This document shows, piece after piece, positions 408-63,760 of a DNA stretch of 64,000 bases. Below the pieces are notes generated by a model that worked only from the letters and a program-made list of their open reading frames with translations, ran no database searches and was not told the origin of the DNA. Origin of the DNA: Verrucomicrobiota bacterium (GTDB lineage Bacteria; Verrucomicrobiota; Kiritimatiellia; JAHIZV01); NCBI GenBank assembly GCA_018814445.1, contig JAHIZV010000113.1, positions 12,679 through 76,678 on the forward strand. The letters run 5' to 3'. The position numbers and the translations under genes were made by a program. Within the stretch, counting starts at the first letter, position 1. The number at the start of each line of letters is the position of its first letter.

Positions 408-491
408 TTCCAACGTTTAGAATACTCTAAATACTATTATTTTTGCATTATTGGCAAGGATTTTTGCAGGAATTCGCTTTTTGCGGCGTCA

Positions 492-1037
492 TTAGACCGC
501 TTCGAGAAGCGAAAAATCGACCTCGACAGCCACCGCCTGCTGAATCATGTCCACATTGAGGATAACGCGTGCCTCCCCTTTCATGCGCGCGACCACGCCT
601 TCCAGACCCTTCATAGGGCCGCCCGTCACGCGCACCTGATTCCCAATCTTCAGGTAGGGCATGACCTCAATGCGGTTTCCGCTGGCAAGGGCCGACCGCA
701 CCTGGCGCAATTGCGACACCAACTGTGCCTGATCAAGTACCGTCAGCAGGTTTGCCACATAGGAGTTCTGCCCAAGTCGCATTCTCTCATCGGCCGAGGC
801 CGCGCAGAAAACATAGCCTTTGAAAAGCGGCGACGAGAAGCGCCTGATTCTACCCCCATACCTGTGCTCCTTTTCGACGAGAGGCAGATAAACACCGAGT
901 CCCCGGTCTTCGCAGTACCTGACGATCTTCTTCTCACACCGGGGACGGGCATGGATAACAACCCATTTCCCCTCACCCTCAGGCATCACCAGTATGTCTG
1001 TAGAAATCCCCACGCCAGGCCAATGTGTTCGGATCAA
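492..1037 (-). CDS. UpxY/RfaH/LoaP-type NusG paralog (transcription antitermination factor)
   Basis: NGN domain W..IHARPRCEKK...YLP...PLFKGYVF plus KOW motif G.QVRVTGGPMKGLEG; alternative start ATG at 986. Confidence 0.85.
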   Translation of the reverse strand: MIRTHWPGVGISTDILVMPEGEGKWVVIHARPRCEKKIVRYCEDRGLGVYLPLVEKEHRYGGRIRRFSSPLFKGYVFCAASADERMRLGQNSYVANLLTVLDQAQLVSQLRQVRSALASGNRIEVMPYLKIGNQVRVTGGPMKGLEGVVARMKGEARVILNVDMIQQAVAVEVDFSLLEAV

Positions 1038-1070
1038 AAGAGAATATCTGCACGCGCCGGCCAGTGCCGC

Positions 1071-2522
1071 TCAAACCTTGCCGTGCAAAACAGAAATCGA
1101 TCCACCCTCTTCCTGTGCCGTCTCAACGCCGGACTCACTGTGAGTAAGCCCCGTGACAATTGTGCGAAATGTGCGCAACAGAATCAGGACATCCAGGTAG
1201 AAACTCATGTGTTTGATGTAGTACAGGTCAAACTGCAGCTTTCGGCGTGCTGCTTCAACACTCGCCGCATAGGGATACTTCACCTGCGCCCAGCCCGTTA
1301 CACCGGGCGGCACCAGAAGCCGCTCCCGATAGAACGGTATGACCTCCGCCAGAGCATCGATAAACTCAGGGCGTTCAGGCCGGGGCCCAACCAGGCTCAT
1401 GTCGCCCAGCAGGACGTTTATGAGCTGAGGTATCTCATCAATACGGGTCTTTCTGAGAAAGCGACCGACCCGGGTGACCCGGGTGTCAACCGCCATGGCC
1501 CAGACCGCGCCCGTCTCCTTCTCCGCGTTCATTCTCATGGTCCGGAACTTGATCACGGTGATGGCGCGCCCATCCTGCCCCACCCGCTTCTGGTGGTAGA
1601 AAATCGGGCCTTTGCTGTTGAGCGGAATGGCAATCGCGGCAATCATGGCTATGGGGGCCGACAGAATGAGGCCAATCAAAGCAATGGAAATGTCCATGGC
1701 ACGCTTGAATTTCCGTATATGGATCCGGGAACTGTTCATCGCCGCATGCATCAGCCATTCGTCATCGATATGGTTTAACGGAATCTCACGGGCAAGCTTC
1801 TCGTAAAGGCTGGCATAGTCCAGTACCTCCACTCCCGCATACCGGAGAGGACGCAGCAACCGCAGAAGAGAAGGTTCGCGTGAAAGAGAAGTGGCAACGA
1901 TTATGGTCTCAATATCATAGCCCGCAATCTCCCGAAGCCGGTCGATTCTGCCCAGCACGGGAACGCCCGCGATAAAGTCGCCCGGTCTTCCGCTCGTGGA
2001 GGAAACGATTCCGAAGAGCTTCATGCCGGAATCCGGTGTGCCCGCGACGAGACGGATGATGTTCTCCGCCTCTTCACTGTCGCCGACTATGAGGGCGCTC
2101 TTGTTCAGGAATCCGTATCCCGCCGCCACCCTGTACAACCGGCGGATACCCCACACGCTCCAGAAGATGAAGAATCCGGCCAGCAGAAGTATGCCTCTTC
2201 CAATGTGGAGTCTGAATCGCGCATAGAAAATCACTATGATCACAATGAGACTGATGCCAACGGCGACAAGTGGAGGCACGAACGTGGCCCGTTTAAGCAG
2301 CAATGTCTCACGCTCGTAGAGGCCGGCCACATAGAAAACCACGAGGAATATCAGCACGGAACCGCCGAGGGAGGGAATGTGCTCGATGACATAGGCCATG
2401 CCCTCAGTCGGAGTCAAGCGGATGACAGAGGAAAGGACAATTGAGCCTACAATGCAGACCAAATCCCCCGTGAAGAGAACAAGCCTTCGTAACGGCACCC
2501 TTAAACCCCTGACAAAAAACAT
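1071..2522 (-). CDS. Priming polyprenyl-phosphate glycosylphosphotransferase (WcaJ/WbaP-type sugar transferase)
   Basis: N-terminal TM helices, CoA-binding-like middle, C-terminal KFRTM, RIDEIPQLINVL.GDMSLVGPRPE, PGVTGWAQV, DL.YI motifs. Confidence 0.93.
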   Translation of the reverse strand: MFFVRGLRVPLRRLVLFTGDLVCIVGSIVLSSVIRLTPTEGMAYVIEHIPSLGGSVLIFLVVFYVAGLYERETLLLKRATFVPPLVAVGISLIVIIVIFYARFRLHIGRGILLLAGFFIFWSVWGIRRLYRVAAGYGFLNKSALIVGDSEEAENIIRLVAGTPDSGMKLFGIVSSTSGRPGDFIAGVPVLGRIDRLREIAGYDIETIIVATSLSREPSLLRLLRPLRYAGVEVLDYASLYEKLAREIPLNHIDDEWLMHAAMNSSRIHIRKFKRAMDISIALIGLILSAPIAMIAAIAIPLNSKGPIFYHQKRVGQDGRAITVIKFRTMRMNAEKETGAVWAMAVDTRVTRVGRFLRKTRIDEIPQLINVLLGDMSLVGPRPERPEFIDALAEVIPFYRERLLVPPGVTGWAQVKYPYAASVEAARRKLQFDLYYIKHMSFYLDVLILLRTFRTIVTGLTHSESGVETAQEEGGSISVLHGKV

Positions 2523-2561
2523 TAAACCCCCAGTCAGCAGTTCATTCAGACCAGCCCACTG

Positions 2562-4781
2562 CTACTTATACTCATACCGGTAATTATAGTCATATTGACC
2601 ATAATAAGTCGAATAGTAGTAGTAACCAACCCTGCCGAACTCGAGGTTATTCAGCACGCATCCCAGAAGGTTCGCGCCTCTTTCCCTGAGAACCTGGACC
2701 GATTGGGAAGACAACTTGCGGGATGTCTGTCCGGCCCAGACAACGAAGATCGCCCCCTCTACGAGCGAGGCCAGAATCGCCGCTTCCGATACGGCCATGA
2801 CTGGCGGACAGTCAAACATGACAAAGTCATAGGTCCGCTTCGCGTAGTCCAGGAATGAATTGAATTCCGGCCGCAGGATAATCTCCGCGGGATTCGGCGG
2901 GAACGGCCCGGTCGCCACCAGGTCAAGATTCGGCAGTCCGGTCCGCTGAACGACGGCTTCAGGTTTCGCCTGCCCGACGAGGAGGTCAGAAAAACCGCGT
3001 CCCCCGTCCAGGCCGAAGAACTTATGCAGTTCTCCCCTGCGCATATCTCCATCAACAACGAGGACCCGGGAGCCAACCTGCGCGAGACTCACGCTCAGGT
3101 TCAGGCAGGTCGTTGTCTTCCCCTCTTTCGGAACAGCCGACGTCATTACAATCGTGCGTGCGGTTCCCCTTGGCGAGCTGAAGAGCAGAGCTGAGCGGAC
3201 GTTCCGGTATGCTTCTGCAAGACCGCTCTGCTGATCGATATTGGAAAGCATGTGAGATCTGAGGTCGTCAGGGTCCCAGTTCGCCGCAGGTATGACGCCG
3301 AAGAACGTCAATCCAAGGCCCGAGGTGACTTCTTCAGGATACCTTATGGAATCATCAATGAACTCAAGACCGAATGTGAGACCAAGACCTATGCCCACAC
3401 CGATGAGCGCCGCGAGGAAAAGGCTCTGCATTTTACGCGGCGCGGTCGGCGCGGTCGCGGGGGTGGCATGCTTGATAATTCGAACCGATTCAGGTTCTAT
3501 GCCGATGGTGATATCCACTTCCTTCAGCCGACTGAAGACCAGATCATAAAGTCCCCGAAGACGGTTAACATCCCGCTGGAGCTTCTCGTATTCATGACCC
3601 TTCCGAGCGACGTCCAGGGCCTGATCCTCCCATTCGCTCTCTGCCCGCTGAACCGCCTGCTCCTTGATGGAAAGCGATTCCAGCTCAGAGTAATACTGCC
3701 TGTACGCGAACTGGAGCTCCACATTTATTGATCGGTCGATTTCCTCGAGCTTCTGAAGCGTCTCCTGGATCTTAGGGTGCCCCTCCCTGAATCTCTTGCG
3801 GAGTTCCGCAAGCCCGGACTCGAGCATGGCTTTTTCCCGTTTCAGGCTCCACCAGCCTCCCTCATTTACAACGCCGCGTTCAATCAGACCGGAGGGTCCG
3901 CCGCTCTGCCCCATAACCTGGTTCGTGCTCCCGCCCAACGCGGCGATCGGAGCCATGCCGCCTCCGTAAGCAGACGCCATAGGCGAAGAAAGCGTCGCCA
4001 ACACGACCTCGTCAGATACGTCGGAAAGCAAGGGCTGTTGCGCCTCAAGGAGCATGCGCTCGGTTCTGTATGAAGCGGCGCGGGAAGAGAGGCTTGCAAG
4101 ATACTGAGCGGCAATATTTCCACGTTCATGGATCGCCACTACGCTATTCTCCTTCTCGAAGACCAGGAGGCGCTCCTCCGCCTTCTCAAGTTCGTCGCGA
4201 ATCCGGTTTGCCTGCTGGGTAAGACTGATGACCGTGGCCTGCGAAGTATCCATCCGTTCCTCGACCTTGAAGTCGAGGTATTCTTCGGCCAGAGCGTTCG
4301 CGTAATCCGCGCCGAGAACCGGGTCAAGACTTGTGACGCTGATCGTCATCATCGAGGTGCGCGCGATGGGTGCGACGGACACTTTGACAATACTTGCGGT
4401 TATCTCACTGAGAGGACGGCTCATGCGCTCTCTTGCGCGCTGAATGAGCATTGTCTGAATGATTCTCTGCTGCGTCGCGATGTAATCCGCACCGCGCAGA
4501 AGCTCGTTCTCCTTCTGCTGTAGACGAGAAGGAACCGGCAGTCCGCCCGTCAGAAGCAGCGTGGATTGACACCGATATACAGGGACCTGGCGTACCAGGT
4601 TGAGAACCATCACGCTGAGAGAAACCACAAAACACAACGCAACGAGCCAGATTCTTTTCACGATGATGTGAAAATACTGCTTCATGTCGTACGTGGAGAA
4701 CCCTTTGCCCGCCGGCGGTTGCGCAGACGGCGCTTGAGTCTGTTGTCCTGACATCTCTGGCGGCGTAAGCATATTTTTCAT
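2562..4781 (-). CDS. wzc: Wzc/GumC polysaccharide co-polymerase tyrosine autokinase
   Basis: Two TM segments flanking a coiled-coil periplasmic domain, Walker A TSAVPKEGKTT, VDGDMRR, DCPP, Tyr-rich C-terminus GYYYYSTYYGQYDYNYRYEYK. Confidence 0.93.
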   Translation of the reverse strand: MKNMLTPPEMSGQQTQAPSAQPPAGKGFSTYDMKQYFHIIVKRIWLVALCFVVSLSVMVLNLVRQVPVYRCQSTLLLTGGLPVPSRLQQKENELLRGADYIATQQRIIQTMLIQRARERMSRPLSEITASIVKVSVAPIARTSMMTISVTSLDPVLGADYANALAEEYLDFKVEERMDTSQATVISLTQQANRIRDELEKAEERLLVFEKENSVVAIHERGNIAAQYLASLSSRAASYRTERMLLEAQQPLLSDVSDEVVLATLSSPMASAYGGGMAPIAALGGSTNQVMGQSGGPSGLIERGVVNEGGWWSLKREKAMLESGLAELRKRFREGHPKIQETLQKLEEIDRSINVELQFAYRQYYSELESLSIKEQAVQRAESEWEDQALDVARKGHEYEKLQRDVNRLRGLYDLVFSRLKEVDITIGIEPESVRIIKHATPATAPTAPRKMQSLFLAALIGVGIGLGLTFGLEFIDDSIRYPEEVTSGLGLTFFGVIPAANWDPDDLRSHMLSNIDQQSGLAEAYRNVRSALLFSSPRGTARTIVMTSAVPKEGKTTTCLNLSVSLAQVGSRVLVVDGDMRRGELHKFFGLDGGRGFSDLLVGQAKPEAVVQRTGLPNLDLVATGPFPPNPAEIILRPEFNSFLDYAKRTYDFVMFDCPPVMAVSEAAILASLVEGAIFVVWAGQTSRKLSSQSVQVLRERGANLLGCVLNNLEFGRVGYYYYSTYYGQYDYNYRYEYK

Positions 4782-4785
4782 ATTA

Positions 4786-5973
4786 TCAGAATCCGATGAT
4801 GCGCTCCGGCACTATGATGACATCGCCCGCCTCGAGCGGAACATCGTTCTCAAATTCCCCTGTCTTAAGAATGCGGCCAACGTTGACAGCGAGACTTTGT
4901 TTGGAGCCGTCCGGCCCTTCGCGGATGAGCTTGACCTTGCCTGTGTTGGCAAAATCTGTGAATCCACCACTGTTCAAAATCGCCTTCGCCAACGTGATCC
5001 TCTGGTCGAGGGGCAGCGACATCGGACCCGGCTTCTTCACCTCGCCCAGGAAATACACCTGACCGCGGCTTGCCTGCTCGATCGATGGCACGAAAATAAT
5101 GTCTCCGGCCAGGACCGGCACATTCATAGTCATGTCAGCCGCACCGAAAAGTCGGGACAGATCAACCGGGATCGCAGTGTAATCTCCGGCTTCATTCGGG
5201 CGCAGAATCCGGACCGAATCCATTTTTGCGTAGCGGCTGACGCCGCCGGCTCTGGAGATGGCGCGAATCATATCAAGATCCTTGGAATACGGATGGAAGC
5301 CCGGATTGCCGGCTTCTCCAAGTACCAGGTACTCTGTAAGACCTTCGACATCGCCAAGCGAAGGAACCATGACGATATCACGCGGGCGCAGGAACTGATC
5401 GTTGCTGAAATCCAGCGTCTCCATCATCGACTGAACATCGACCGTGATGATCTGACGCTCCATGCTCCCGCCCGGCTTCCAGCGAATGATCCTGACCTCC
5501 GTGCCCGCGGCTCCACGGGCCAACCCTCCGTGCATCGCAATCAGTTCCATGAGAGTCAGAATCTGGTCGCCCCTGAAATCATGCGCTCCGGGGCTGTTCA
5601 CGGCGCCAAGAACAAGTATGCCGCCTTCGACAAACTCAGCCACTTCAACGGTAACGTTAGCTTCCTTGAAGTAGCTCTGCTTGAGCAGACTTTCTATCAG
5701 GTCAGCGGCCTCTTCCGTGGTGAGGTCAACGACTCGTATTCTCCCAACCAGGGGAAAGTCTATGGTCCCGTCGCCCGCCACCGCGTAGACCCGGTTCATG
5801 TCAGGTTGTTCTTTCACGGAAATCCGGACGCGGTCTCCCGCGATAACGCCTCGAACCGGCGTGGGGGTCTGGGCGGAAGCCGGAAGAATGGCTCCAAGGA
5901 AACCGATAAGAACTGCTGTCAGGACCAGGAAGGTTGAATATCCTGCAAGTCTATGTTGTTTGGCGGAATGCAT
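4786..5973 (-). CDS. wza: Wza-like polysaccharide export protein with Poly_export domain and three SLBB repeats
   Basis: Signal peptide; GDRVRISV...V..DGTIDFPLVGRIRV; repeated V.GEV..PG / AI..AGG SLBB motifs; adjacent to wzc. Confidence 0.88.
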   Translation of the reverse strand: MHSAKQHRLAGYSTFLVLTAVLIGFLGAILPASAQTPTPVRGVIAGDRVRISVKEQPDMNRVYAVAGDGTIDFPLVGRIRVVDLTTEEAADLIESLLKQSYFKEANVTVEVAEFVEGGILVLGAVNSPGAHDFRGDQILTLMELIAMHGGLARGAAGTEVRIIRWKPGGSMERQIITVDVQSMMETLDFSNDQFLRPRDIVMVPSLGDVEGLTEYLVLGEAGNPGFHPYSKDLDMIRAISRAGGVSRYAKMDSVRILRPNEAGDYTAIPVDLSRLFGAADMTMNVPVLAGDIIFVPSIEQASRGQVYFLGEVKKPGPMSLPLDQRITLAKAILNSGGFTDFANTGKVKLIREGPDGSKQSLAVNVGRILKTGEFENDVPLEAGDVIIVPERIIGF

Positions 5974-6010
5974 GCTGTGATCTCAAGAGGCCGAACGGCG
6001 ACTGTATGGA

Positions 6011-7342: not shown

Positions 7343-7422
7343 GGAAGACGCTCCAGATTGTCAGTACTCCGGATTTTTGCGGTGCTGTCCCTGAACGCAC
7401 ATCATAGGGAAAAACGACCAGG

Positions 7423-7821
7423 CTATCTTCCGCCGCCATGAGCACCATCGTACTCCATGACAGGCAACTGGTCACCGGCCGTCAGCGTCGAAGCGTATTC
7501 GAAATCGCCGGGCTCACCCCACTGCACGACCTTACCGTTCAGGAAAATGACCCAGTATTCTTTGTCGTATTTGTCCGTGATAGCCGCGAGGGAAAAGATG
7601 GGCGGTATATACTCCCACACTTCCACCCATTCTTCGTTATCGTAAATCTTGGATGCGCGCACAGCATGCGGGTCACCCATCTCATAGCGGACCTCGTCGG
7701 GGTTCATGCCCAGACGCAGATCGCTGATATGGCGGTCCGGCGTCATGCATCCCCCCAGAAGGCATGCAAAAAACACTAGAATCGCGGCTCTGTATGCAGT
7801 CACGACTGTTCTCCTTTCCAT
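7423..7821 (-). CDS. Small lipoprotein, BamE/SmpA-like fold
   Basis: Lipobox LLGGC; LRLGM..DEV...MG.P; W.Y ... VIF.NGKVVQWG pattern. Confidence 0.6.
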   Translation of the reverse strand: MERRTVVTAYRAAILVFFACLLGGCMTPDRHISDLRLGMNPDEVRYEMGDPHAVRASKIYDNEEWVEVWEYIPPIFSLAAITDKYDKEYWVIFLNGKVVQWGEPGDFEYASTLTAGDQLPVMEYDGAHGGGR

Positions 7822-8045
7822 GGTTTCTCAGTATCGAGTATGTCTTATATAATAAGCCTTTGCCCACTGACAATGCTAATCACTCAGGTTTCCTCCAGTG
7901 AAATGGACCCGCTGTCGAGAGGCTGCCTGCAATCACCGGCAAAACATCGGCAAATGGCCTTGCTGAAAAGCACGTTCAACTGTATCCTAATAATGGTGAA
8001 AAGCAATCGCGGCAAGCCCGTTGAGAGTTACGGGGAAGGTTGGGT

Positions 8046-9272: not shown

Positions 9273-9555
9273 ATACCTCGCCGCAATGTGCCATCACAAT
9301 CGGTCCTGAATTCACATTTATCTTGCCCAAATGTCATATGTTCGGGTTGCCACGTCATCCGTATTGATCTATTATTTTGTCGCTTATCCATTTATGGGAG
9401 ATTCAACAGCTGACCCGGTTGACCGCTGCAGACCGCAAATTCATGCGGCTCGCGGCGGCTTGTGGCGCAGTGTGGATATGCTATATGCTTGATGAAACCG
9501 CCTCTTGTAGGCGATGTGGTGGTCTTTTCTGAGTAGGGGCATACGGTCAAAACGA

Positions 9556-10920: not shown

Positions 10921-11025
10921 CCGCCTTCGCCGGCTCCAAGCTGAACTTTAAGCGTTGAACTCTCGACTTCCCCACGTATGATCCCCCCTCACTCCGCGTT
11001 CTGCGGGGCAGCAAGGAGGTCTGAG

Positions 11026-12564
11026 TTGTTAGCGCAGGTGTATTCAGGGGCGGTCTATGGCGTCGACGCGTATCGCGTTGATATTGAGGTCAATGCAGGT
11101 CACGGAGAACCGAAGGTTATCATCGTCGGACTTCCCGACGCGGCCGTGAAGGAGAGCTCAGACCGGGTCTGGACCGCTCTAATAAACTCAGGATTCGCTC
11201 CGCACTTCGGCCGAACCACCGTGAATCTCGCCCCCGCCGATATTAAGAAGGAAGGACCCGTTTTCGACCTGCCCATCGCTCTGGGTATGCTTGCCGCGAC
11301 AGATGCAATTTCGTCAGATCGTCTCCGAGAGTTCTGCATGGTGGGCGAACTCGCGCTGAGTGGAGAAGTGCGCCGCGTACGGGGCGTTCTGCCGATCGCC
11401 CTGCACGCGAAGAAAGAGGGATTGAAAGGAATACTGGTTCCCGTCGGGAATGCGGAGGAGGCGGCCGTCGTTGACGGCCTCGATGTGTACCCCGTAAGCA
11501 CACTCCGGGAAGCGGCAGATTTTCTGGATGGGAAACTCTACCTCGAACCTCTCGCTTTCGACGTGCAGTCGGTTTTCGACAGGTATGGAGTATACGACGA
11601 GGACTTCGCGGAGGTGAAGGGCCAGGAAACCGCCAAACGAGCCCTGGAAGTCGCGCTCGCGGGCGGTCATAACGTGCTCTTGATCGGCCCGCCGGGTACC
11701 GGAAAAACGATGTTGGCAAAGCGGGTGCCTTCGGTCCTCCCACCGATGACACTGGAAGAAGCTCTTGAGGCAACGAAGATACACAGCATCGCGGGAACAC
11801 TTCCTCCCGGTCAGGCCCTGGCCGCCACACGGACATTCCGCGCCCCGCATCACACGATATCGGATGCCGGACTGCTTGGGGGCGGCTCTCATCCCACACC
11901 CGGCGAAGTCAGTCTCGCCCACCACGGCGTGCTCTTCCTCGACGAGCTTCCGGAATTCCACCGCAACGTGCTGGAGGTATTGAGACAGCCGCTCGAAGAC
12001 AGAGAAGTGACGGTGTCGCGTGCCGCGGCAACTGTGACTTTTCCCTGCGGCTTCATTCTCGTCGCCGCCATGAACCCCTGCCCGTGCGGTTATCACACGG
12101 ATCCGCAGCGGGAGTGTCGATGCTCTCCCATTCAGATTCAGCGCTACAGAAACAAGATCTCGGGTCCGCTCCTCGATAGGATAGATATACATATTGAGGT
12201 TCCCACAGTCCGGTACCAGGAACTGTCATCGCTTGAATCCGGCGAAAGCTCATCCAGCATCAGGCAACGCGTCATCGCGGCAAGACGCAGCCAGCAGGAA
12301 CGCTTCAGAAACCGGCGCAAGGTTCACTGCAACGCGGACATGGGCTCACGGGAGGTGAGTGATTGCTGCAAGCTGGATTCGGAAGCACAGGATCTCCTCA
12401 GAATGGCCATCCACGAACTGAACTTCAGCGCCCGCGCCTACAACCGCATCCTCAAGGTCGCCAGAACTATCGCCGACCTCGACGGCGCGCCGGAAACGAT
12501 CACTTCAGAGCATGTGTCCGAGGCCATTCAGTATCGGAGCCTTGACCGCCAGATGTGGGTGTGA
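11026..12564 (+). CDS. comM: YifB/ComM family Mg-chelatase-like AAA+ ATPase
   Basis: Lon-like N-domain ([22 protein letters not shown]), Walker [24 protein letters not shown], Zn-finger CPCG...CRC; TTG start with AAGGAGG RBS. Confidence 0.93.
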
Positions 12565-12590
12565 AGAAGGTGTGGGAGTGTGGTCGAGGA

Positions 12591-14528: not shown

Positions 14529-14541
14529 GGACAGATGAAGA

Positions 14542-14569: not shown

Positions 14570-14584
14570 GCATGGACGAGGAGT

Positions 14585-15919
14585 TCAGGTTACCTGTTCC
14601 TCGACCAGGTCTTCAACAGTGCGGCCCTGCAGGATACCGTCCATGCCTTCCCCCAGCCTCTCCAGCACGGCGGCGACGGACGAGTCAATATTCTCGATGC
14701 CGAGCATCGCGGGACTCGCACCTGACTCCGCGATCACATTGAAAACGTCCCTGACCGTAATACCGTCCGCCGCCCGGCACAGCACATAACACCCTCCGCG
14801 ATCGGCCACTTCGACAAGGAAACCTGCCTCCTCCAGCAGTTCAACCAGCTTGTTGACCAGACGTATCGGCACACGGTTCTCACGGGCAAAAGCGCTGACT
14901 TCGAATACACCGCCCTGCGTCTTCTGCGCGCGCCCCGCCGATGTGATGATCGAGAGCAGCAGAAGCGATCTGGAATGAATGCTCGGAACCGCATTTGTGA
15001 GCTCCATCGGATATGTGTCCTGGTTCTGGATCGCAAAGGCGACCTCCGCCCCGAGAAGTATAATGATCCAGCTTATATACAGCCACGCCAGGAATATCGG
15101 CACCGTCGCGAATGTCCCGTAGATCGCGTTGTACCGGGCTACGCCCACCTGCATCGTGATATACGTATTCTGCCACGTAAGCCACATGAGCGACCCCGCC
15201 AAAGCGCTGACCGCCGCCGGCATGAGGCGAACGCGCGTGTTTGGAAGAAACAGATACAGGAAGATGAAAGCCAACCACGCACTGAAGGCCGGAGTGAAAC
15301 GCAGGAGACTTCGATAGAGAATCCCGACGCTCCCGAGTTTCGCGATGACCGTCTCGCTCTGAAGCGTTGCCGAGAATGTACCGGCTATACCAATGAGAAT
15401 GGGCACGACAACGAGAATGCTGATGTAGTTCGCCGTCCTCCGCATGATGTTCCGCGAGCGCGCGATGCCCCATATCCGGTTGAATGCGTCTTCCATGCCG
15501 GCCAGCACCCAGGTCGCTGCCATCAGCAGAGCGGCGAGACCCACCCAGCTCAGGCGCGTGTAGTCGGTGTTGTTGACCACTTCCACCATCTTGTCGAGGA
15601 ACGTCTGAAACTCGACCGGCATATCGCCCTTCCATTCGAGAAAGCTGTCTATGCGATCCTGACCGACCCCGAATCCGCGCAGAATGGAAAAGATGATCGC
15701 AAGCAGAGGAATAAGGGACATCAAAGAGGCAAACGTCAGGGCGGACGCACGGATAAGCAGTTCGTCGTTCTTTATTCCCCGCACCACGAGATGCACCGTG
15801 CGCAGAGCAGATACACCCGTTCGCCGGATGAGGGACATCGATGAGATATCGAGAGTCCAGACGTCATGCAGAATGAACTGCCGGCACTTCTTCCAACTGA
15901 ATCCAGAATCCTCAGACAT
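14585..15919 (-). CDS. YihY/BrkB family inner-membrane protein with C-terminal Rrf2-like winged helix
   Basis: RASALTFASLMSLIPLLA, AFNRIW, YNAIYGTFA..P.FL.W.Y..W...L.GAE; C-terminal wHTH (L.EAGF...GG.Y.L). Confidence 0.85.
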   Translation of the reverse strand: MSEDSGFSWKKCRQFILHDVWTLDISSMSLIRRTGVSALRTVHLVVRGIKNDELLIRASALTFASLMSLIPLLAIIFSILRGFGVGQDRIDSFLEWKGDMPVEFQTFLDKMVEVVNNTDYTRLSWVGLAALLMAATWVLAGMEDAFNRIWGIARSRNIMRRTANYISILVVVPILIGIAGTFSATLQSETVIAKLGSVGILYRSLLRFTPAFSAWLAFIFLYLFLPNTRVRLMPAAVSALAGSLMWLTWQNTYITMQVGVARYNAIYGTFATVPIFLAWLYISWIIILLGAEVAFAIQNQDTYPMELTNAVPSIHSRSLLLLSIITSAGRAQKTQGGVFEVSAFARENRVPIRLVNKLVELLEEAGFLVEVADRGGCYVLCRAADGITVRDVFNVIAESGASPAMLGIENIDSSVAAVLERLGEGMDGILQGRTVEDLVEEQVT

Positions 15920-17743: not shown

Positions 17744-18754
17744 ATGATTCGTGAAACCATAGCCAGACTGGTTGAACATCAGGACATCACGCGCGAAGAA
17801 GCACATGCGACCATGCGCGAGATCATGGGCGGCGAAGCCACGGAGGCCCAGATTGCGTCCTTCATCACGGCCCTCCGCATGCACGGCGAATCGCCCGCAG
17901 TGATAGCAGGCTGCGCGGCGGCCATGCGCGAGAATTTCACCGCCGTCGAACCTCATGCCGATGTAGTTGTCGATGTCGTCGGCACCGGCGGCGATTGCGC
18001 GCACACGTTCAACATATCAACGGCGTCCGCGATCGTAACGTCAGGCGCCGGCATCACCGTCGCCAAGCATGGGAACCGAAGCGTCTCCAGCAAGAGCGGT
18101 GCGGCGGATGTCCTCGGCGCGCTCGGTGTGAATATCACCTGCGCCCCTGAGATCATGTCTCAATGCCTGAAAGAAATCGGACTCGCGTTTCTCTTCGCGC
18201 CAGCTCTGCATCCCGCGATGAAATATGCCATCGGACCGCGAAGGGAAATCGGAATCCGCACTATCTTCAATATCCTCGGCCCCATCTCCAATCCCGCCAG
18301 TGCCCGACACGGGCTTCTCGGCGTATACTCCGCAGATCTCGTGCCCGTTATGGCGGAAGCCTGCGCGTCGCTCGGTGTGAAGCATCTGTTCGTGGTACAC
18401 GGAATGGACGGGCTTGATGAGATCACCCTGACGACCACAACGCAGGTCGCCGAGGTGAAAGACGGCAGGATCGAAAACTACCAGATCACGCCCGCCACCG
18501 CTGGACTGGAGACATGTACTCCCGACGAACTCGTGGGCGGAGAACCCGAAGACAACGCCACGATCATTCGCGCGATACTCGACGGTGAATCCGGCCCGAA
18601 ACGGGACGTCGTCCTCCTCAACTCCGCCGCGGCAATCGTAAGCGCCGGCAAGGCATCAGACCTGAAAGAAGGTGTCCAGGTTGCCGCCGAATCCATCGAC
18701 TCCGGAGCCGCCAAAGCTAAGCTGGAGAAACTCATCGCACTGACGAAAGTGTAG
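17744..18754 (+). CDS. trpD: Anthranilate phosphoribosyltransferase
   Basis: GTGGD..HTFNIST, KHGNRSVSSKSG.AD.L, HPAMK, RTIFNILGP. Confidence 0.96.
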   Translation: MIRETIARLVEHQDITREEAHATMREIMGGEATEAQIASFITALRMHGESPAVIAGCAAAMRENFTAVEPHADVVVDVVGTGGDCAHTFNISTASAIVTSGAGITVAKHGNRSVSSKSGAADVLGALGVNITCAPEIMSQCLKEIGLAFLFAPALHPAMKYAIGPRREIGIRTIFNILGPISNPASARHGLLGVYSADLVPVMAEACASLGVKHLFVVHGMDGLDEITLTTTTQVAEVKDGRIENYQITPATAGLETCTPDELVGGEPEDNATIIRAILDGESGPKRDVVLLNSAAAIVSAGKASDLKEGVQVAAESIDSGAAKAKLEKLIALTKV

Positions 18755-18789
18755 TCTGTGAAGCCACCTGTTCAAGACGGGCGCAGGAC

Positions 18790-18835
18790 CTCCAATGCCC
18801 GGAAGTGTCGAGGCGGCACTTTCCGAACCTTGGAA
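18790..18835. repeat. Doublet of degenerate TTCCAA-N3-TTGGAA palindromes around a GC-rich hairpin, between convergent genes (possible bidirectional terminator or REP-like element)
   Basis: CTCCAATGCCCGGAA (18790) and TTCCGAACCTTGGAA (18821); inner IR CGGAAGTGTC/GGCACTTTCCG. Confidence 0.45.
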
Positions 18836-18845
18836 CTGAAGCAGT

Positions 18846-37145: not shown

Positions 37146-37219
37146 TCGGGCGCATCTTGCCAGAGGTGAGGACGGTAGACAAGCGCGGGAGAATGGAAGA
37201 GCCTCCCAGCACCGCCCCT

Positions 37220-37316
37220 GTTTGGGAGTTTGGGTGTATGGAAGTTTGGGAGCGGGCGGAGGGTCTGTTACTGAATATTCATTGCGCCGCGTGATGAATA
37301 TTCACGTGACTGACCC
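37220..37316. repeat. Octamer tandem repeat (GTTTGGGA-like x4) followed by an imperfect inverted repeat with two TGAATATTCA cores
   Basis: GTTTGGGA GTTTGGGT GTATGGAA GTTTGGGA (37220-37251); arms GGGTCTGTTACTGAATATTCAT / ATGAATATTCACGTGACTGACCC (37261-37316). Confidence 0.6.
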
Positions 37317-47483: not shown

Positions 47484-48467
47484 ATGAAGGTGCTGGTAAC
47501 AGGCGGAACAGGTTTCACAGGAAAGGCGCTGGTACGGCGGCTCCTCGACGAAGGCTATGAGGTCGTCGCGCTGGACTACAAAGAGGGTCTGAAGACCGAG
47601 GAACTGCGCGCGTGGGGCGCGGATGTCCGCATCGGCTCCGTGACCGATAAGGACGTCGTGGCCGAATGCATGAAAGGCGTCGACTACGTCCAGCATCTGG
47701 CGGCCGCCTTTCGGGAATTGGACGTACCGAACGAGTACTATGAAGAGGTGAACGTCGGCGGCACGAGGCTCACACTCGAAGCCGCGCACAAGGAGGGCGT
47801 AAAGAAGTTCGTCTACTGCAGCACGTGCGGCGTACACGGCAACATCGATAATCCGCCCGGCGGCGAGGACGCGCCGATTCAGCCCGCCGACTACTACCAG
47901 AGAACGAAGTATGAAGCAGAGCCAGTTGTGAGAGAGTACTTCGAGAAAGGCCTCAAGACCGTCATCCTCCGCCCCGCGGCTATTTACGGTCCCGGCGACC
48001 CCGAACGGTTTTTCATGATCTTTAAACGAGTGGCGTCAGGTAGATTTCCAATGTTTGGAAACGGCAGGACCTACTACCATCCACTCTACATCGACAACCT
48101 GATCGATGCCTGCATGCTCGCCATGCAAGAGGGCAAGGGTGACGGAAACGCATACCTTATTGCCGACGAGGAGTATCTTGAGATCGAGGAACTCGTGAAG
48201 CGGACGGCCAAGGCTCTCGGAGTCGACGTGAAGATACCTCATTACCCCGTCTGGCCCGTCGTCGTCCTGGGGCATATCTGTGAGAAAGCCTTCAAGCCCT
48301 TTCACATCGTTCCCCCCATCTTCCCTCGCCGCGTCGACTGGTATCGCCAGAACCGCGCCTTCAAGATCGACAACGCGAAGCACGACCTCGGATACCAGCC
48401 CAAAATCGGCATCGATGAGGGACTGAGAAGAACAGGCGAATGGTACAAGGCAGAAGGCTATCTTTGA
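47484..48467 (+). CDS. NAD-dependent nucleotide-sugar epimerase/dehydratase (extended SDR)
   Basis: VTGGTGFTG, HLAA, STCGVHG, YxxxK (YQRTK), RPAAIYGPGD. Confidence 0.92.
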   Translation: MKVLVTGGTGFTGKALVRRLLDEGYEVVALDYKEGLKTEELRAWGADVRIGSVTDKDVVAECMKGVDYVQHLAAAFRELDVPNEYYEEVNVGGTRLTLEAAHKEGVKKFVYCSTCGVHGNIDNPPGGEDAPIQPADYYQRTKYEAEPVVREYFEKGLKTVILRPAAIYGPGDPERFFMIFKRVASGRFPMFGNGRTYYHPLYIDNLIDACMLAMQEGKGDGNAYLIADEEYLEIEELVKRTAKALGVDVKIPHYPVWPVVVLGHICEKAFKPFHIVPPIFPRRVDWYRQNRAFKIDNAKHDLGYQPKIGIDEGLRRTGEWYKAEGYL

Positions 48468-50113: not shown

Positions 50114-50219
50114 CGTGACGCAGAGGATTGCACCAGCCAACGGAACCGTCAAGTTCCCAAGCTGTTGACGGGAGACCCGGTAACGGCTAGAAAGGGATTG
50201 CTCACTGAAATACGGCGCC

Positions 50220-51734: not shown

Positions 51735-51802
51735 CCGGGGAACGTCTATTTCCCGTAGTGAGTACGCGGCCTGTGGATATAGACCACACGCTTCTTCGTG
51801 TC

Positions 51803-53401
51803 TTAGTCAATTCGCCAAAGACCCAGATCCGGCGTGTCGGTGTGGGTCAGGACTTCGCGGAAAGTGGCAACGCGCCTGCTGTCGCTGACCTCAAATGATC
51901 CCGCGCTCTTCCGGTAGAGCGGCGAGAGCACTTCCACTTCGTATCCTCCGGGCGTCACGGCAACGTTGTACCAGGTTTGTTGCCTGGCGGATGCGGGATC
52001 TACCGGTCCGAGCCAGTACTGGATCCCCTTCTCTTTCAGATACCCGCTGATCCCCAGTCGGAGAATGTCGTCGTTATACTGGAAGTCATTGATGAGCCCG
52101 TCTGTCGAAAGAATATTGCAGCCGGAGTGGTACGCGATGATTCCCGGCCAGTCGTAGATGATGATGTTCGTCCCCTCCGGGAAATGCGCTCCGAGCCAGT
52201 TCCCCAATTCCTCCTGCCATCTTCCGCGCGCAGGCTGCCGCGCATAGTCCACGTACGAACGAAGCGTGATGGTCGGCGCCGAATACCTGTACCGGAAGAG
52301 TGCGTATGCATTAATAAGGAGTGACAGGATCAGTGCGCAAGCCAGCATCACTTTGGGTGCAAGCAGACGCTTGAGGAACAGCAAGTTGCCGGCGACGATC
52401 TCCGTCAGGATCGCGAACGAAAGCGACATATTCATCGCGCCGCTGAAGTAGTACCAGGGCCACTTGGTGTGGTGGTTCGTCAGGAAGATGATTTGCATCG
52501 CATGGAGAAGCACTCCCACGGACAGAATCAGAAACGTCGCCCTTCGAGCCCGGTCGCAGAAAGCCGTGGCACAGAGGATCAGGTTGACGGCCGCGAACAG
52601 CATGCAGACCTTGCCGAGCGAACTGACCCCGCCGAGATTAAAGAACAAACCGGACTGGGCGCTTTTGATCGAACCGCTGATGGGAACCAGGTGGCCGAAG
52701 GTGAAGTAGTTGAGGGCGAGATAAGGACTCACCACAAGAAGGAACGGAAGGAAGAGAAACAGCGCTGTCTTGATGACCTTCCGCGAGAGCAGGTTCGCGA
52801 CCCGCCAGTCCGCGCACTCGAGTGTTGTGAACAGAAACAGCGAACCAATGACGAAAATGTTGTCCAGCCGGGCGAGGGCTGCAAGACCCGCGATCACGCC
52901 GACTACCGCGAAACGCAGTGGCTCCCTGCCGCGCCCGAACAAAGCTACCAGCGCAGCGTACACCGCGCCGATGACCAGGAACCCGTTGAGATAACCCTCG
53001 CACGCGTAGAGACGGGTCGCGTAGTAGACGAACAGGATCGGCAGGGCCATGAACCAGTACTTGAGCCTGAGCAGGCGGGAGATGCGGTAGATGAAGTAGA
53101 TAATCCCTAGAGCCAGCACCTGCTGGAACGCGATCACAATGTGCAGGGCCAGGAGCTTGTCCCCATGGGCAAGAAAGAAGGCTGCCACGCAGAATACCAT
53201 CCAGAGCGGATGATAACCGTTGGTTGGAACGATGCGGTTGAATGTGCTTCCGTAGCCCGCGTAGATATTGTGAGCGACCTGAAGGTAGAAATAGGAATCA
53301 TCAGCGGGATAGTTGTCGGGCCGGACATGCGCCGGGATGATGAAGGACAGCAACACGGCCGCTCCCAGAATGACTGCCAGGATGGTTGTTCCTTTGCTCA
53401 T
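51803..53401 (-). CDS. GT-C fold membrane glycosyltransferase #2
   Basis: First-loop DDSYFYLQVAHNI..G.G.TF....TNGYHPLW; multiple TMs; LARLD; G.IAY..G...DGLIND. Confidence 0.75.
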   Translation of the reverse strand: MSKGTTILAVILGAAVLLSFIIPAHVRPDNYPADDSYFYLQVAHNIYAGYGSTFNRIVPTNGYHPLWMVFCVAAFFLAHGDKLLALHIVIAFQQVLALGIIYFIYRISRLLRLKYWFMALPILFVYYATRLYACEGYLNGFLVIGAVYAALVALFGRGREPLRFAVVGVIAGLAALARLDNIFVIGSLFLFTTLECADWRVANLLSRKVIKTALFLFLPFLLVVSPYLALNYFTFGHLVPISGSIKSAQSGLFFNLGGVSSLGKVCMLFAAVNLILCATAFCDRARRATFLILSVGVLLHAMQIIFLTNHHTKWPWYYFSGAMNMSLSFAILTEIVAGNLLFLKRLLAPKVMLACALILSLLINAYALFRYRYSAPTITLRSYVDYARQPARGRWQEELGNWLGAHFPEGTNIIIYDWPGIIAYHSGCNILSTDGLINDFQYNDDILRLGISGYLKEKGIQYWLGPVDPASARQQTWYNVAVTPGGYEVEVLSPLYRKSAGSFEVSDSRRVATFREVLTHTDTPDLGLWRID

Positions 53402-55437
53402 TTTGTCACATATATCTCAATCTCCCCCACAGTCCAGTCACGCCCCTCGTTGACTTCCGCGACCTCGATTCGCAGGGCGTCTGTAGTGACTGCGGGAAAG
53501 CGGATTGTCTGGACCTGGTTTCCGTACACAGGGTGACCGTTCACGAACTCGAACGCGTCCAGACTTTCGGGAACCTTCGAGAGCACGGTCTGCCACCGCC
53601 GGCCTTTCTTCCGCGCCAGGATGTTCAGTGAGACCGCCCGGTCATGATGATAGTAATTGTAGAACATCGCCACGCGCGTCACAGGCACGGGCTGAGGGAA
53701 TTCGATATCGATGAACATGCCGCCTGCCTGTGCGCGGTGTGAACGCCAGCGCGAGACATAGTTGCCGTCCTTCAACAACGCGGCATCCTGCGGATAGTCG
53801 CTGACCGAGATGTTCAGATCTTCGGCATCAAGCCTCCGGTCTCGATCAGGCTTTTCCTGCGCGAAGTCGGTATAGACCTTGAACTCCCCACACGTTTCAA
53901 TTCGGGAGGTTACATGCATGGCAGACAGATCGTACTCCAGGTCTTCAGGCCTGAACCTGTAGCTGGGACCCAGGACGAACGCCACATTTGTTGATGCGTC
54001 GACCACATCCTTGTAAGGGAGAGGCCAGCCGAAGAAACGCTCGTTATAGGGCTGTGCACAGATGATCTTCTCGTCCGTCACATAGTCGATGTTGTAGGCG
54101 TCGAAATACGACGCGTAGCATCGGGTTATTCCGCGCGACTCCATGTATTCGACCGGTGGACCAACCGGCGTGAACACTTTGAAGTCCTCCGCCTTCCACC
54201 GGGAATTCAGAGCCACCGCCGTCGCTATGTTGAGCACGGCCAGGAGAACTGCGAGCCACCCCAGCACAACGCGGACGGGCCGCCGAGACACCGCGTACAG
54301 GAACGCGATCCCAAACGGGAGATACCACGCCAACGGCAGGAGGTAGCGGAATTCGTGCGAAGCCGACCTCCTGTTCACGATGAACAGCAGAACGCACACC
54401 CATGACAATCCGGCAAAGAGATCTGCAGTCTCAATCGACGGCCATTTGTTCTTCGCCCATCTCCCGATGAAACGCCACACGCATACGAGCGTCAGAAGAA
54501 CCGTCAGGATGATCCAGAGCACGGCGAAGACGCGGAGCCACGCCTGCGGCACGACCCCGACCATCTCCAGGGAATCAGGCCAGACGGTGCACTGCATTCC
54601 AAGCGCCGATGGCAGAGTGAATTTCATCGTCGGGTCCCAAAGGCGACCGAAGGCGTCGTTCCACGGAACGAGACTGGAGACGGCGGCAAACGCCCCGGGA
54701 TATATTTTCTTCGCGTAGAAGTACGGGGACATTCCGATCAGCGCGCTGACCGCGAACGCCGGCGTCGAGAAAGCGGCCTTCCTCCAGTTTGTTCCCAGGC
54801 AGACCATCACACCCACGCCCGCCAGAATCGGGACCGCCAGCAATGTGCCGCTGAACGCCACCCCGGAAATGAGTCCGGCGGCGACGGCCCACGGGAGATA
54901 GCCACTCTCCCTTTCCCTGTGCATCTGCGCCGCCCAGACGGCCATTGCGGAAAGGCACATGAACGACGGATAGCTCGGAAGGGCGTAGCCGACCTGCAGG
55001 GAAAGGAAATACGCTGACGGGAAGAGGACCAGCAGCACGCCCGGCCAGACCTCGCGGAGCCTGCCCCAGCGAACGAGAATCAGGAGCGAAAACACGACGG
55101 TTGCCAGGCCGAGCAATGCGGCGCCGGTCCTCGGCCCGATCGCGTTCCTCGGGAGGAACCTGATGAACGGCGCGTACATGTAAGCCTCGAGAGGAAACAG
55201 GTACGGCTGGGCCATGAAAAGCAGCGGGTACCGCCCTTTGACCCACATGGGATGCCTCTTCGCCTTCATTTCAAACGAAGCGTCATCCTGCGTTATGCCC
55301 ATAGCCTGCAGGGCGATGATGCTTTCATCACCCGAAACGTGAACCCTCGTCACACTCGTGTGGAACAACACAATCCGATAGCTGCTCGCAAGAGCAATCA
55401 GGAGACAGATTCCCAGGATTGGAATATGTTTTTTCAT
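53398..55437 (-). CDS. GT-C fold glycosyltransferase #3 with C-terminal F5/8-type-C (discoidin/CBM32-like) domain
   Basis: SGDESIIALQA loop, GQ/AQ.Y...LE.Y; C-terminal L.DGN..SRW.S....G..I.I.F.....V..V; ATG 55437 preferred. Confidence 0.75.
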   Translation of the reverse strand: MKKHIPILGICLLIALASSYRIVLFHTSVTRVHVSGDESIIALQAMGITQDDASFEMKAKRHPMWVKGRYPLLFMAQPYLFPLEAYMYAPFIRFLPRNAIGPRTGAALLGLATVVFSLLILVRWGRLREVWPGVLLVLFPSAYFLSLQVGYALPSYPSFMCLSAMAVWAAQMHRERESGYLPWAVAAGLISGVAFSGTLLAVPILAGVGVMVCLGTNWRKAAFSTPAFAVSALIGMSPYFYAKKIYPGAFAAVSSLVPWNDAFGRLWDPTMKFTLPSALGMQCTVWPDSLEMVGVVPQAWLRVFAVLWIILTVLLTLVCVWRFIGRWAKNKWPSIETADLFAGLSWVCVLLFIVNRRSASHEFRYLLPLAWYLPFGIAFLYAVSRRPVRVVLGWLAVLLAVLNIATAVALNSRWKAEDFKVFTPVGPPVEYMESRGITRCYASYFDAYNIDYVTDEKIICAQPYNERFFGWPLPYKDVVDASTNVAFVLGPSYRFRPEDLEYDLSAMHVTSRIETCGEFKVYTDFAQEKPDRDRRLDAEDLNISVSDYPQDAALLKDGNYVSRWRSHRAQAGGMFIDIEFPQPVPVTRVAMFYNYYHHDRAVSLNILARKKGRRWQTVLSKVPESLDAFEFVNGHPVYGNQVQTIRFPAVTTDALRIEVAEVNEGRDWTVGEIEIYVTK

Positions 55438-55647
55438 AGCCCGCGTGACCAACCTCAGCGTCGGCAAAGACCTATAGTGAACGTAAATCGATGTCGAGTG
55501 AATTAATTCCGCCCGCTTTTTCCCGCTTGGCGACCGTGTCTGCGGCGCGACAGATTCCTTGCCTTACTCGAAACCAAGGGGAACCACAGATGGACACGGG
55601 AACCTTTTCTCTTTGGTTCACGGAAAGAGCGCATTACAATCTGTTGC

Positions 55648-58506: not shown

Positions 58507-58520
58507 TTCCGTGATCGAAT

Positions 58521-61106: not shown

Positions 61107-61218
61107 ATTGCACCGGAGCGTGTCCAGTCAGCAGGCGCATATACCTGATCGGGGCGCGTCTGCGATTAGGTGCGAACCCCGGCGAAAACACGACATGAGC
61201 CCATATTTTTATCCCTTT

Positions 61219-61275
61219 CTTAATCGTAATCCTGCTCGCAATCATAATCGATTAGGATCAGGAGGGAATAGGAGA
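61219..61275. repeat. Hexamer-periodic imperfect inverted repeat (CTTAAT CGTAAT ... ATTAGG ATCAGG) in a divergent intergenic region
   Basis: Read directly; the first 13 nt CTTAATCGTAATC recur exactly at 44993. Confidence 0.45.
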
Positions 61276-61397
61276 TCAGTGAAGTGTCTGCACTATCGAC
61301 CGCTCCGCGATAGCAACTGTTCCGCCCTGCACCCCGTGCAGGCGGAGAAGCAAAACTCGTCTGGACCAATTATCCGTTAGTCGCTACTGTCTGCGGC

Positions 61398-63389: not shown

Positions 63390-63450
63390 CTGAGGAGTCG
63401 AAAGCCGGACGCGCCGTTTTGCGACAACCGTTCTACCTGAACCGCGCCAG

Positions 63451-63648
63451 TCAGTCCGAAGCGATCCATGTTCTTGCCTCATCGACTTCTGTACTGGCGA
63501 AATGCCGGATCGTCGCTGCGACAAAATGAGAGGTGATGTGTTCGGCGGCATCTCCGAGGCGGGAGTCCGTAACAACGGCTATCTTCTTGATCTTCCGATG
63601 GTGATCGCGCACGAATCGAAAATGACGAACGGCCGAACTCAAGCAGTT
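63451..63648 (-). pseudogene. 5'-truncated SpoIIAA-like (STAS/SEC14-type) protein remnant
   Basis: RFVRDHHRKIKKIAVVTDS....HF....IRHF...E...AR.WI is the C-terminal half of that family; the upstream part is unrelated. Confidence 0.6.
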
Positions 63649-63660
63649 CTTCGGCCTCGG

Positions 63661-63760
63661 CCTGCGGCGCATGCGTTGGCCCTGGGCCTGGCGGTTGTGA
63701 CCGGCAACGAGCGGGATTTCCAAGCCTTGGAGGTTTCTTCCGTAGCCGAGAACCGGGCTC
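63661..63760 (+). pseudogene. VapC/PIN C-terminal remnant
   Basis: AAHALALGLAVVTGNERDF...EN matches the PIN C-terminus; no N-terminal half or start. Confidence 0.55.

Follow-up and report, generated by a model that had tools for sequence, protein, structure and literature searches.

A helically phased palindrome in Kiritimatiellota-type genomes, with sparse copies in a 64-kb stretch: candidate binding sites for a putative dimeric DNA-binding protein

Introduction

Over-represented DNA words such as the repetitive extragenic palindromic (REP) elements, the uptake signal sequences (USS) and DNA uptake sequences (DUS), highly iterated palindrome 1 (HIP1), Chi and matS have each led to chromosome biology. 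Palindromes are also found in ordered arrays: those bound by Lrp/AsnC-type (feast/famine) proteins consist of 13-15 bp sites, each bound by a dimer and placed about three helical turns (30-33 bp) apart, with the DNA wrapped or aligned on the protein oligomer. The subject of this work is the palindrome TTCCAA-N3-TTGGAA, which occurs at five places in a stretch of 64,000 nucleotides from a Verrucomicrobiota bacterium of the Kiritimatiellia (contig JAHIZV010000113.1, positions 12,679 to 76,678). This whole stretch is referred to below as the window.

Comparison with other genomes places the five sites in a repeat family that pervades Kiritimatiellota-type genomes. In our judgement the chances are slightly better than even that the window sites are sparse, partly decayed copies of this Kiritimatiellota palindrome family and that the family is recognised by a putative dimeric protein binding double-stranded DNA (dsDNA). 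The combination of a near-perfect palindrome kept throughout a little-studied phylum, strict helical phasing, free spacers and birth in place inside genes is unusual, and what it predicts is an abundant dimeric protein that would bind the site cooperatively. A search of the full-text literature, in a coverage that misses most subscription journals, gave no description of the motif.

Results

With at most one mismatch allowed, TTCCAA-N3-TTGGAA has five matches in the window. All were reported in a first-pass annotation of this DNA, at 408, 18821, 48046, 55410 and 63718, and all are present there with the sequences described (Table 1). Only 0.15 matches are expected from dinucleotide shuffles, 0.2 from protein-preserving synonymous shuffles and 0.1 from codon permutation. 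The excess over chance claimed by the annotation therefore stands, also under the codon-aware null that it had proposed as a check (5 observed against 0.1-0.2 expected), but its expectation of 0.07 does not, as the shuffles give 0.1-0.2. It had also cautioned that choosing the motif post hoc overstates significance, and rightly so. When every 6-N(0-12)-6 palindrome with at most one mismatch was scored in the window, TTCCAA-N3-TTGGAA was the top-ranked member of the class, and an equally extreme motif was found in 1% of dinucleotide shuffles and 2-3.5% of codon-aware shuffles, giving a family-wise p of 0.01-0.035 in the window alone. Within the window, then, the excess is suggestive: borderline, not decisive.

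The doubt due to post hoc selection is removed by independent genomes, which carry the same motif. A position weight matrix (PWM) was built solely from other genomes and then run over the window. The five reported sites were the five best matches, where 0.29 were expected at that threshold (Poisson p ~1e-5), and all five have C or G as the centre base. One decayed canonical pair (18790/18821, 31 bp apart) and four singles make up the holdings of the window, and only one copy is perfect.

The distribution of the motif was followed in loci that were fetched by protein similarity to the epimerase and TrpD encoded in the window, and hence independently of the motif. Twenty such loci from genomes of the Planctomycetes-Verrucomicrobia-Chlamydiae (PVC) group contain 22 matches, against 0.46 expected (~50 times), and several of these matches lie 31-32 bp apart; 140 loci from other phyla contain 10 against 4.0 expected. 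A single 21-kb locus, L093, has 12 matches, six of them perfect. A second control of 80 loci (726 kb) returned a duplicate of L093 and one further match, with ~1.1 expected for the whole set. The annotation's suggestion of a genome-wide signature is thus borne out as a signature of the lineage, with an enrichment of some 50 times where unbiased loci come from the nearest relatives and about the chance level elsewhere.

When 596 Gb, each species represented by one genome, were scanned for pairs of perfect copies at distances of 20-45 bp, at least 120 loci were obtained, where our own calculation expects ~0.05 by chance. Among the 80 titles listed, 24 name Kiritimatiellae, -ia or -ales, Tichowtungia or Pontiella and 40 carry older PVC labels (Verrucomicrobia, Lentisphaerae, the 'Spartobacteria' metagenome-assembled genome (MAG) INTA.AUR.068); of the rest, 14 are without a label and 2 are named Prevotellaceae. 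NCBI places Tichowtungia and Pontiella in two classes of the phylum Kiritimatiellota. The annotation had mentioned similar repeats in Kiritimatiellae, and perfect pairs at 31-32 bp are indeed, among the matches listed, all but confined to genomes of the Kiritimatiellota type. Arrays are present in each of the three MAGs whose TrpD is most similar to that of the window (68%, 65% and 62% identity); the TrpD of the window has no match above 68% identity among genome contigs, and at most 61% in JGI metagenomes. In some genomes the density of the motif reaches ~0.1-0.6 per kb. Perfect pairs or arrays were also seen in 16 viral or proviral contigs of IMG/VR (L282-L297), with up to six sites in L295.

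The anatomy of the family was taken from 120 loci (860 kb) seeded by the pair scan, which hold 394 perfect and 83 one-mismatch sites. Measured from centre to centre, neighbouring sites are 31 bp (113 cases), 32 bp (90), 21-22 bp (24) or 42-43 bp (13) apart, and no spacings of 23-29 or 34-40 bp occur, although the seed pattern allowed 20-45 bp. The observed distances of 21-22, 31-32 and 42-43 bp are two, three and four turns of B-DNA. Clustering at ~31 bp, which the annotation had named as something to look for, is therefore found in 203 cases in these seeded loci. There are 51 singles along with 112 pairs, 34 triplets and 16 quadruplets, and arrays of 5-7 copies number six. A span of exactly 151 bp is shared by three six-site arrays that are unrelated (L179 2697-2847, L190 7580-7730 and L245 5852-6002) and built in steps of 22 and 30-31 bp, two of them as mirror images (22,31,31,30,22 and 22,30,31,31,22), and the three equal spans may point to a defined wrapped particle. 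In the array at L173 1670-1808 two spacer types alternate with a super-period of 62 bp, which indicates that tandem duplication of a two-site unit enlarged some arrays. The arrays match no Rfam family. A borderline match to the Rfam abiF RNA motif (37.5 bits, gathering score 37) lies at L181 6733-6775, directly before a seven-site array; the gene beside this array is read as a type I restriction S-subunit.

The unit itself is a palindrome of 15-19 bp with the extended consensus tT-TTCCAA-(T/G)-S-(A/C)-TTGGAA-Aa. In 99% of sites the centre base is C or G, in a 47/52 split, and the bases flanking the centre tend to be complementary. Pairing of a symmetry that reaches so close to the centre would leave a loop of 1 nt, which is impossible in a hairpin. 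Further out the flanks are symmetric too, with T in 70% on one side and A in 71% on the other. Where mismatches occur, they fall mainly on the innermost A/T of a half-site, and the CC/GG core is the most conserved part. Hairpins of single sites fold at -4 to -6 kcal/mol, with two G-C pairs in the stem. Each genome has its own dialect (TTCCAAT-S-ATTGGAA at 32 bp in bin-1020, TTCCAAG-S-CTTGGAA at 31 bp in bin-260), and in each of three MAGs the 16-17 nt between paired sites vary from copy to copy, while dialect and the choice of 31 or 32 bp are specific to the genome. Relative to transcription the centre base is not biased towards either strand (114 C and 97 G), nor do the centre-base combinations of pairs show a clear preference that would give pairs an overall dyad symmetry.

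With genes called by codon log-odds (47 of the 51 curated gene ends were recovered in the window, the caller's training set), 358 of the 477 sites (~75%) fall in the 15% of the DNA that is intergenic, a density per base ~17-fold higher than elsewhere. Clusters of at least two sites lie between co-directional (tandem) genes in 77 cases, between convergent genes in 18 and between divergent genes in 17. Upstream stop codons lie at a median distance of 30 nt. Numerous arrays start no more than 20 nt from a stop codon, or finish 3-30 nt ahead of a start codon, and between co-directional genes they lie nearer the upstream stop than the next start in 52 cases against 25. The neighbours are unrelated, and include purM, thrC, lysA, mreC, alaS, pheS, pyrE and yggS as well as sulfatase and secreted-protein genes. 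Upstream of yggS and of pyrE, arrays are found at orthologous positions in different MAGs. A fixed promoter element beside the arrays was looked for, and no positional signal was seen apart from the A/T flanks.

Inside genes the motif is maintained at the level of the DNA: the interior of confident genes holds 15 perfect single copies where synonymous shuffling gives 0.9 (16 times). The phase TTC-CAA-NNN-TTG-GAA, read as FQxLE, is preferred (18 of 29). In addition, ~20 pairs at 31-32 bp lie within open reading frames (ORFs) with good coding signal on both sides. The two sites of such a pair are read in different phases, as neither 31 nor 32 is a multiple of 3, and the phases used are FQxLE, [FLIV]PxxGK or S[KN]xWK. 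A pair occurs at one and the same position in two orthologous GH95-like genes, each from a different MAG, and motif-free homologues do not differ in length at this point (e.g. LPSFAETRRACAARWE compared with LPMIGKTFEETSNHWK). As both this GH95-like stretch and the epimerase site of the window are unchanged in length in motif-free homologues, these in-gene copies arose in place, by codon and amino-acid change and not by insertion.

Table 1 Copies of the palindrome in the window
Feature	Sequence	Position	Mismatches	Centre	PWM match	Location
Site 1	TTCCAACGTTTAGAA	408..422	1	G	11.8 (fifth best in window)	intergenic
Degenerate partner	CTCCAATGCCCGGAA	18790..18804	3		sixth best in 64 kb	
Site 2	TTCCGAACCTTGGAA	18821..18835	1			intergenic
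Site 3	TTCCAATGTTTGGAA	48046..48060	0 (perfect copy)		27.2 (top score)	
Site 4	TTCCCAGGATTGGAA	55410..55424	1			within ORF 53398-55437 (-)
Site 5	TTCCAAGCCTTGGAG	63718..63732	1		20.0 (second best)	region of gene remnants

Site 2 lies between the convergent trpD (17744-18754 +) and an ankyrin-repeat gene (18846-21404 -), 11 nt from the stop codon of the latter, and its degenerate partner CTCCAATGCCCGGAA stands exactly 31 bp upstream. The chance that the sixth-best match falls 30-33 bp from any of the five sites is ~6e-4. The two are a decayed canonical 31-bp pair, in the 3'-intergenic position typical of the family. No terminator-like or promoter-like site was found around site 2 (terminators were sought in 18650-18950). 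The ankyrin-repeat protein, of 852 aa, has an architecture unusual for bacteria, with eight ankyrin-repeat stretches and two C-terminal CBM48/AMPK glycogen-binding modules.

Site 3 lies within an NAD-dependent epimerase gene (47484-48467 +) and is translated as F-P-M-F-G-N. The annotation's remark that it forces AT-rich codons on a gene rich in GC at third positions (GC3 0.73) is correct, the codons being TTT CCA ATG TTT GGA. In the window Pro is encoded by CCA in 8% of cases, Phe by TTT in 28% and Gly by GGA in 23%, and the coincidence of three rare wobble choices has P ~0.005 given the peptide. The peptide itself fixes 9 of the 12 specified bases, and FPMFG is invariant, with no insertion or change in length, in 48 epimerase orthologues from many phyla. 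At 75-83% identity to proteins of Desulfobulbaceae, Thermoanaerobaculia, Victivallales and others (best match 83%), the epimerase gene appears to be horizontally mobile, even though it bears the sole perfect copy of the window. An identical epimerase is present in a 3.1-kb Logan contig from SRR2540949.

The two other sites in coding phase agree with the in-gene copies of relatives. Site 4, 13 nt inside its ORF, is translated as I-P-I-L-G-I in an N-terminal hydrophobic segment, in the phase [FLIV]-P-x-[FLIV]-G of many of those copies. The position just inside the start of the ORF was given correctly in the annotation, but the name 'GT-C #3' was not upheld, as there is no Pfam or NCBIfam match. 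Site 5 reads TTC CAA GCC TTG GAG (F-Q-A-L-E) on the plus strand, which is phase 0, the preferred FQxLE phase of the relatives. It was said to lie in a vapC remnant; the region is one of gene remnants, and the vapC identity found no match among hidden Markov models (HMMs). In this patch (63390-64000) the minus strand codes for no more than the C-terminal half of a SpoIIAA-like (PF11964) protein, and the plus-strand peptide ...VVTGNERDFQALE looks like the end of a PIN domain, again with no HMM match.

Site 1 directly adjoins, as had been noted, a MarR/GbsR-type regulator gene (1-407 -) at its ATG (405-407, minus strand); the best NCBIfam match of the regulator is CudC, under the cut-off of that family. 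Site 1 has no good partner at helical spacing in the window. No orthologue of the regulator was found among relatives, only proteins of 35-43% identity in other phyla. A perfect 6-4-6 palindrome unrelated to the motif, TTTAGA-ATAC-TCTAAA, overlaps site 1 at 416-431. It sits in the 84-nt region upstream of the regulator gene and may be the operator of the GbsR/CudC-like regulator itself; taken alone it is statistically weak.

Other features of the window

Some further features of the window were noted in passing. In the divergent intergenic region 7822-8039 the near-palindromes TGCTGAAAAGCA and TGGTGAAAAGCA lie 33 bp apart (7961-8005) and have the look of a separate pair of operators. At 37219-37250, in intergenic DNA upstream of an LpxI-like gene, a 16-nt sequence is repeated in tandem (TGTTTGGGAGTTTGGG and TGTATGGAAGTTTGGG). 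The gene at 14585-15919 (-) encodes a YihY/BrkB-type membrane protein fused to a C-terminal Rrf2-like DNA-binding domain. Within 492-5973 (-) a polysaccharide locus comprises a sugar transferase, a Wzc-like GNVR/AAA protein and a Poly_export/SLBB exporter, and a UpxY-family NusG paralogue (antiterminator) lies immediately downstream of it on the minus strand. Lipid A genes (LpxB, LpxI) lie in the right half of the window, together with numerous genes for glycosyltransferases and methyltransferases.

Discussion

In the explanation that we prefer, the palindrome would be the recognition site of an abundant, lineage-conserved dimeric dsDNA-binding protein. Dimers on neighbouring sites would lie on the same face of the helix and could bind cooperatively or wrap the DNA, in a role that would be architectural, nucleoid-associated or related to gene boundaries, as opposed to the control of one regulon. 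Selection for sites, or a drive tied to the same recognition, may keep the 12 core bases while their surroundings drift. Helical phasing, symmetry between the strands and spacers that are not conserved favour a protein-binding dsDNA site; the family shows the dyad-symmetric, strand-independent sites at integral helical turns that mark a cooperative phased binding-site array. Among the possibilities that the first-pass annotation had offered (a REP-like unit, the site of a nucleoid protein, an uptake-like or a HIP1-like motif), these same features favour the protein-binding site.

Several points weigh against this explanation. The binder is a putative protein, its binding being read from sequence alone. 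Non-seed clusters occur at ~0.115 per kb, which extrapolates to several hundred clusters per genome, and the high copy number and the share of perfect copies resemble those of REP, USS and HIP-type words more than those of ordinary operators. Weak hairpins (-4 to -6 kcal/mol) are possible, and many arrays must be transcribed because they are close to stop codons or 3-13 nt before starts. The context counts are approximate, coming from a gene caller of our own, and the taxonomic range of the pairs is that of a sample (at least 120 loci, of which 80 titles were listed). In addition, the sparse and partly decayed sites of the window mean either that this region is poor in the element or that the element is decaying in the lineage, both readings being allowed by a count that covers the window.

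Uptake sequences offer an unlikely alternative. The palindrome would then be the preferred substrate of a DNA-uptake or recombination machine, accumulating by molecular drive wherever it is tolerated, as do USS in Pasteurellaceae and DUS in Neisseriaceae. The density in some genomes, the genome-specific dialects, the lack of any tie to gene function and the in-gene sites, made in place with a preferred reading phase in variable protein segments, all agree with this. The window also contains a ComM-like gene (10978-12564), which is weak evidence as ComM is widespread. Arrays of up to 7 copies at exact helical-repeat multiples are, however, unlike uptake sequences, and the intergenic bias (75% of sites in 15% of the DNA) is stronger than that of USS or DUS; the known uptake sequences are not palindromic, and competence is not known in the phylum Kiritimatiellota. 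A hyperabundant palindrome of the HIP1 kind, tied to a DNA methyltransferase or to biased repair or gene conversion and not to a structural protein, is less probable still. It would account for enrichment in coding and non-coding DNA alike and for a deep-lineage conservation with variants and no evident function at single sites, but a repair or methylation bias predicts neither the phasing at 21, 31-32 and 42 bp nor arrays, nor the ~17-fold intergenic density per base. Both models can account for dialects and for copies inside genes, and both leave the phased arrays unexplained. Still lower in probability, we regard as very unlikely a unit akin to REP elements, bacterial interspersed mosaic elements (BIMEs) or REP doublets (REPINs), recognised as a single-stranded hairpin and spread by a transposase of the REP-associated tyrosine transposase (RAYT) type (IS200/IS605 Y1). 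Short palindromic units that are mostly extragenic, high-copy, clustered and, between co-directional genes, nearer the upstream stop would fit. The spacers and flanks, however, differ between copies within one genome, in-gene copies exist without insertion, the symmetry extends into the would-be hairpin loop and helical phasing is meaningless for single-stranded DNA. REPs are usually specific to a species or genus, and here the same core is kept across a phylum. No Y1-like (RAYT) protein was found among 346 small predicted proteins (~0.9 Mb), a weak negative obtained with a crude HUH pattern on a small genome sample.

Function at the level of RNA is, if anything, marginally less probable again. 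Hairpins UUCCAA-NNN-UUGGAA would act as weak terminators or stabilisers or mask ribosome-binding sites through GGA(A), or the array would present GGA repeats to an RNA-binding protein. This is consistent with arrays less than 20 nt from a stop, with arrays ending 3-13 nt before a start, where GGAA stands at Shine-Dalgarno distance, and with the T-rich flanks that follow many sites. It is at odds with the weakness of the hairpins, the lack of strand bias relative to transcription, the arrays in divergent promoter regions and inside genes, the lack of an Rfam match and a 10.5-bp periodicity that belongs to the double helix. That the five window sites are chance matches that resemble a real family elsewhere is highly improbable. 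This had been the leading idea after the window shuffles and after local explanations had been found for sites 1, 3 and 5, and it was dropped on the counts in relatives, the PWM ranking and the 31-bp partner. It draws on the post hoc choice of the motif, with its borderline family-wise p in the window alone, on the single perfect site and four singles, and on three sites lying in coding sequence, the peptide at site 3 setting most of its bases. Against this, a motif defined independently from other genomes finds 5 sites where 0.29 are expected, the C/G centre obligatory in the family is present in all five, a sixth site falls at the canonical 31 bp, and the coding sites share the phases of the relatives' in-gene copies. 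Least credible of all is an operator of a specific regulon, for example one bound by the neighbouring GbsR/MarR-type regulator or by a protein of the Fur family. TTCCAAT-S-ATTGGAA does have the 7-1-7 shape of Fur-family boxes, site 1 does abut the start codon of a regulator, and a PerR-like gene (L234) has a three-site array 76 nt upstream. The flanking genes are functionally unrelated, however, and sites occur in all types of intergenic region, at 3' ends and inside genes, contrary to the regulon operator that the annotation had allowed as an alternative; no orthologue of the GbsR-like regulator was found among relatives. A binder of the Fur/PerR type was considered and rejected, as three orthologous PerR-like loci are without the motif and the protein is an ordinary PerR beside ahpC and ferritin genes.

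If the palindromes are indeed phased binding sites for an abundant dimeric protein, a broader proposal can be made, tentatively and with some doubt: that Kiritimatiellota would have a novel sequence-directed chromatin or boundary system, in which a conserved protein would sit on arrays of near-perfect palindromes, 2-4 helical turns apart, at most gene boundaries. The demand for sites would then be so strong as to alter codons, and even amino acids, within genes. For practical purposes the motif is a sequence marker with which contigs of Kiritimatiellota can be binned and classified. Genes must be called with care where arrays occur, since long spurious ORFs extend through them.

Comparison with known systems

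The REP, BIME and REPIN elements of Proteobacteria, with their RAYTs, share with the motif short palindromes in hundreds of copies, an extragenic location, clusters of fixed geometry and a frequent position just after stop codons. The motif, too, is a predominantly extragenic high-copy palindromic unit. It differs from these elements in being a perfect palindrome of 15-19 bp with a weak stem, unconserved spacers and helical-repeat spacing; in three MAGs the whole doublet with its intervening sequence is not conserved as it would be in a mobile unit. Nor do new copies come by insertion: those in genes were born in place, and the core is phylum-wide.

USS and DUS are alike in a density that in some genomes is of the order of one per kb, in their dialects, in their preferred in-gene phases in tolerant protein segments and in the lack of a link to gene function, and like them the motif is over-represented in coding and non-coding DNA with lineage dialects. 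They are, however, asymmetric 9-12-mers without phased tandem arrays, whereas the motif is a phased palindrome. HIP1 (GCGATCGC, cyanobacteria) is likewise a hyperabundant palindrome of a deep lineage, present in coding and non-coding DNA and of unknown function. HIP1 is, however, a contiguous 8-mer that forms neither phased pairs nor arrays and shows no strong preference for intergenic DNA. The motif has phased pairs and arrays as well as such a preference, and is bipartite (6-N3-6) with a positional structure.

The arrays of Lrp/AsnC-type proteins are alike in that palindromes lie about three helical turns apart. Those palindromes are degenerate, few per genome and placed at regulated promoters, whereas the motif is near-perfect, present in hundreds of copies or more and found beside any gene. 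The sites matS/MatP, NBS/Noc, SBS/SlmA and parS/ParB also resemble it, as palindromes of 13-16 bp that are recognised by dimers, scattered through the genome including its genes and selected on the DNA itself. They number tens per genome and are single and restricted to domains of the chromosome, whereas the motif stands in arrays; helically spaced arrays are not known for any of them.

CRISPR arrays have repeats of at least ~23 nt and unique spacers of at least ~26 nt, and are long, with cas genes nearby. Here the repeat is 15-19 nt, the spacers are 7-27 nt (mostly 16-17), the arrays have 2-7 units and many loci lie beside housekeeping genes. The stems, with two G-C pairs and -4 to -6 kcal/mol, are not those of intrinsic terminators, in which a stable G+C-rich hairpin precedes a U tract, and clusters also occur in divergent promoter regions. 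The diversity of the neighbours, the 18 clusters between convergent genes and the ~20 pairs inside genes set the motif apart from the operator of a regulon. It is filed as kin to the lineage-specific over-represented genomic palindromes, and as distinct from REP/REPIN elements, HIP1, CRISPR arrays, terminators and operators.

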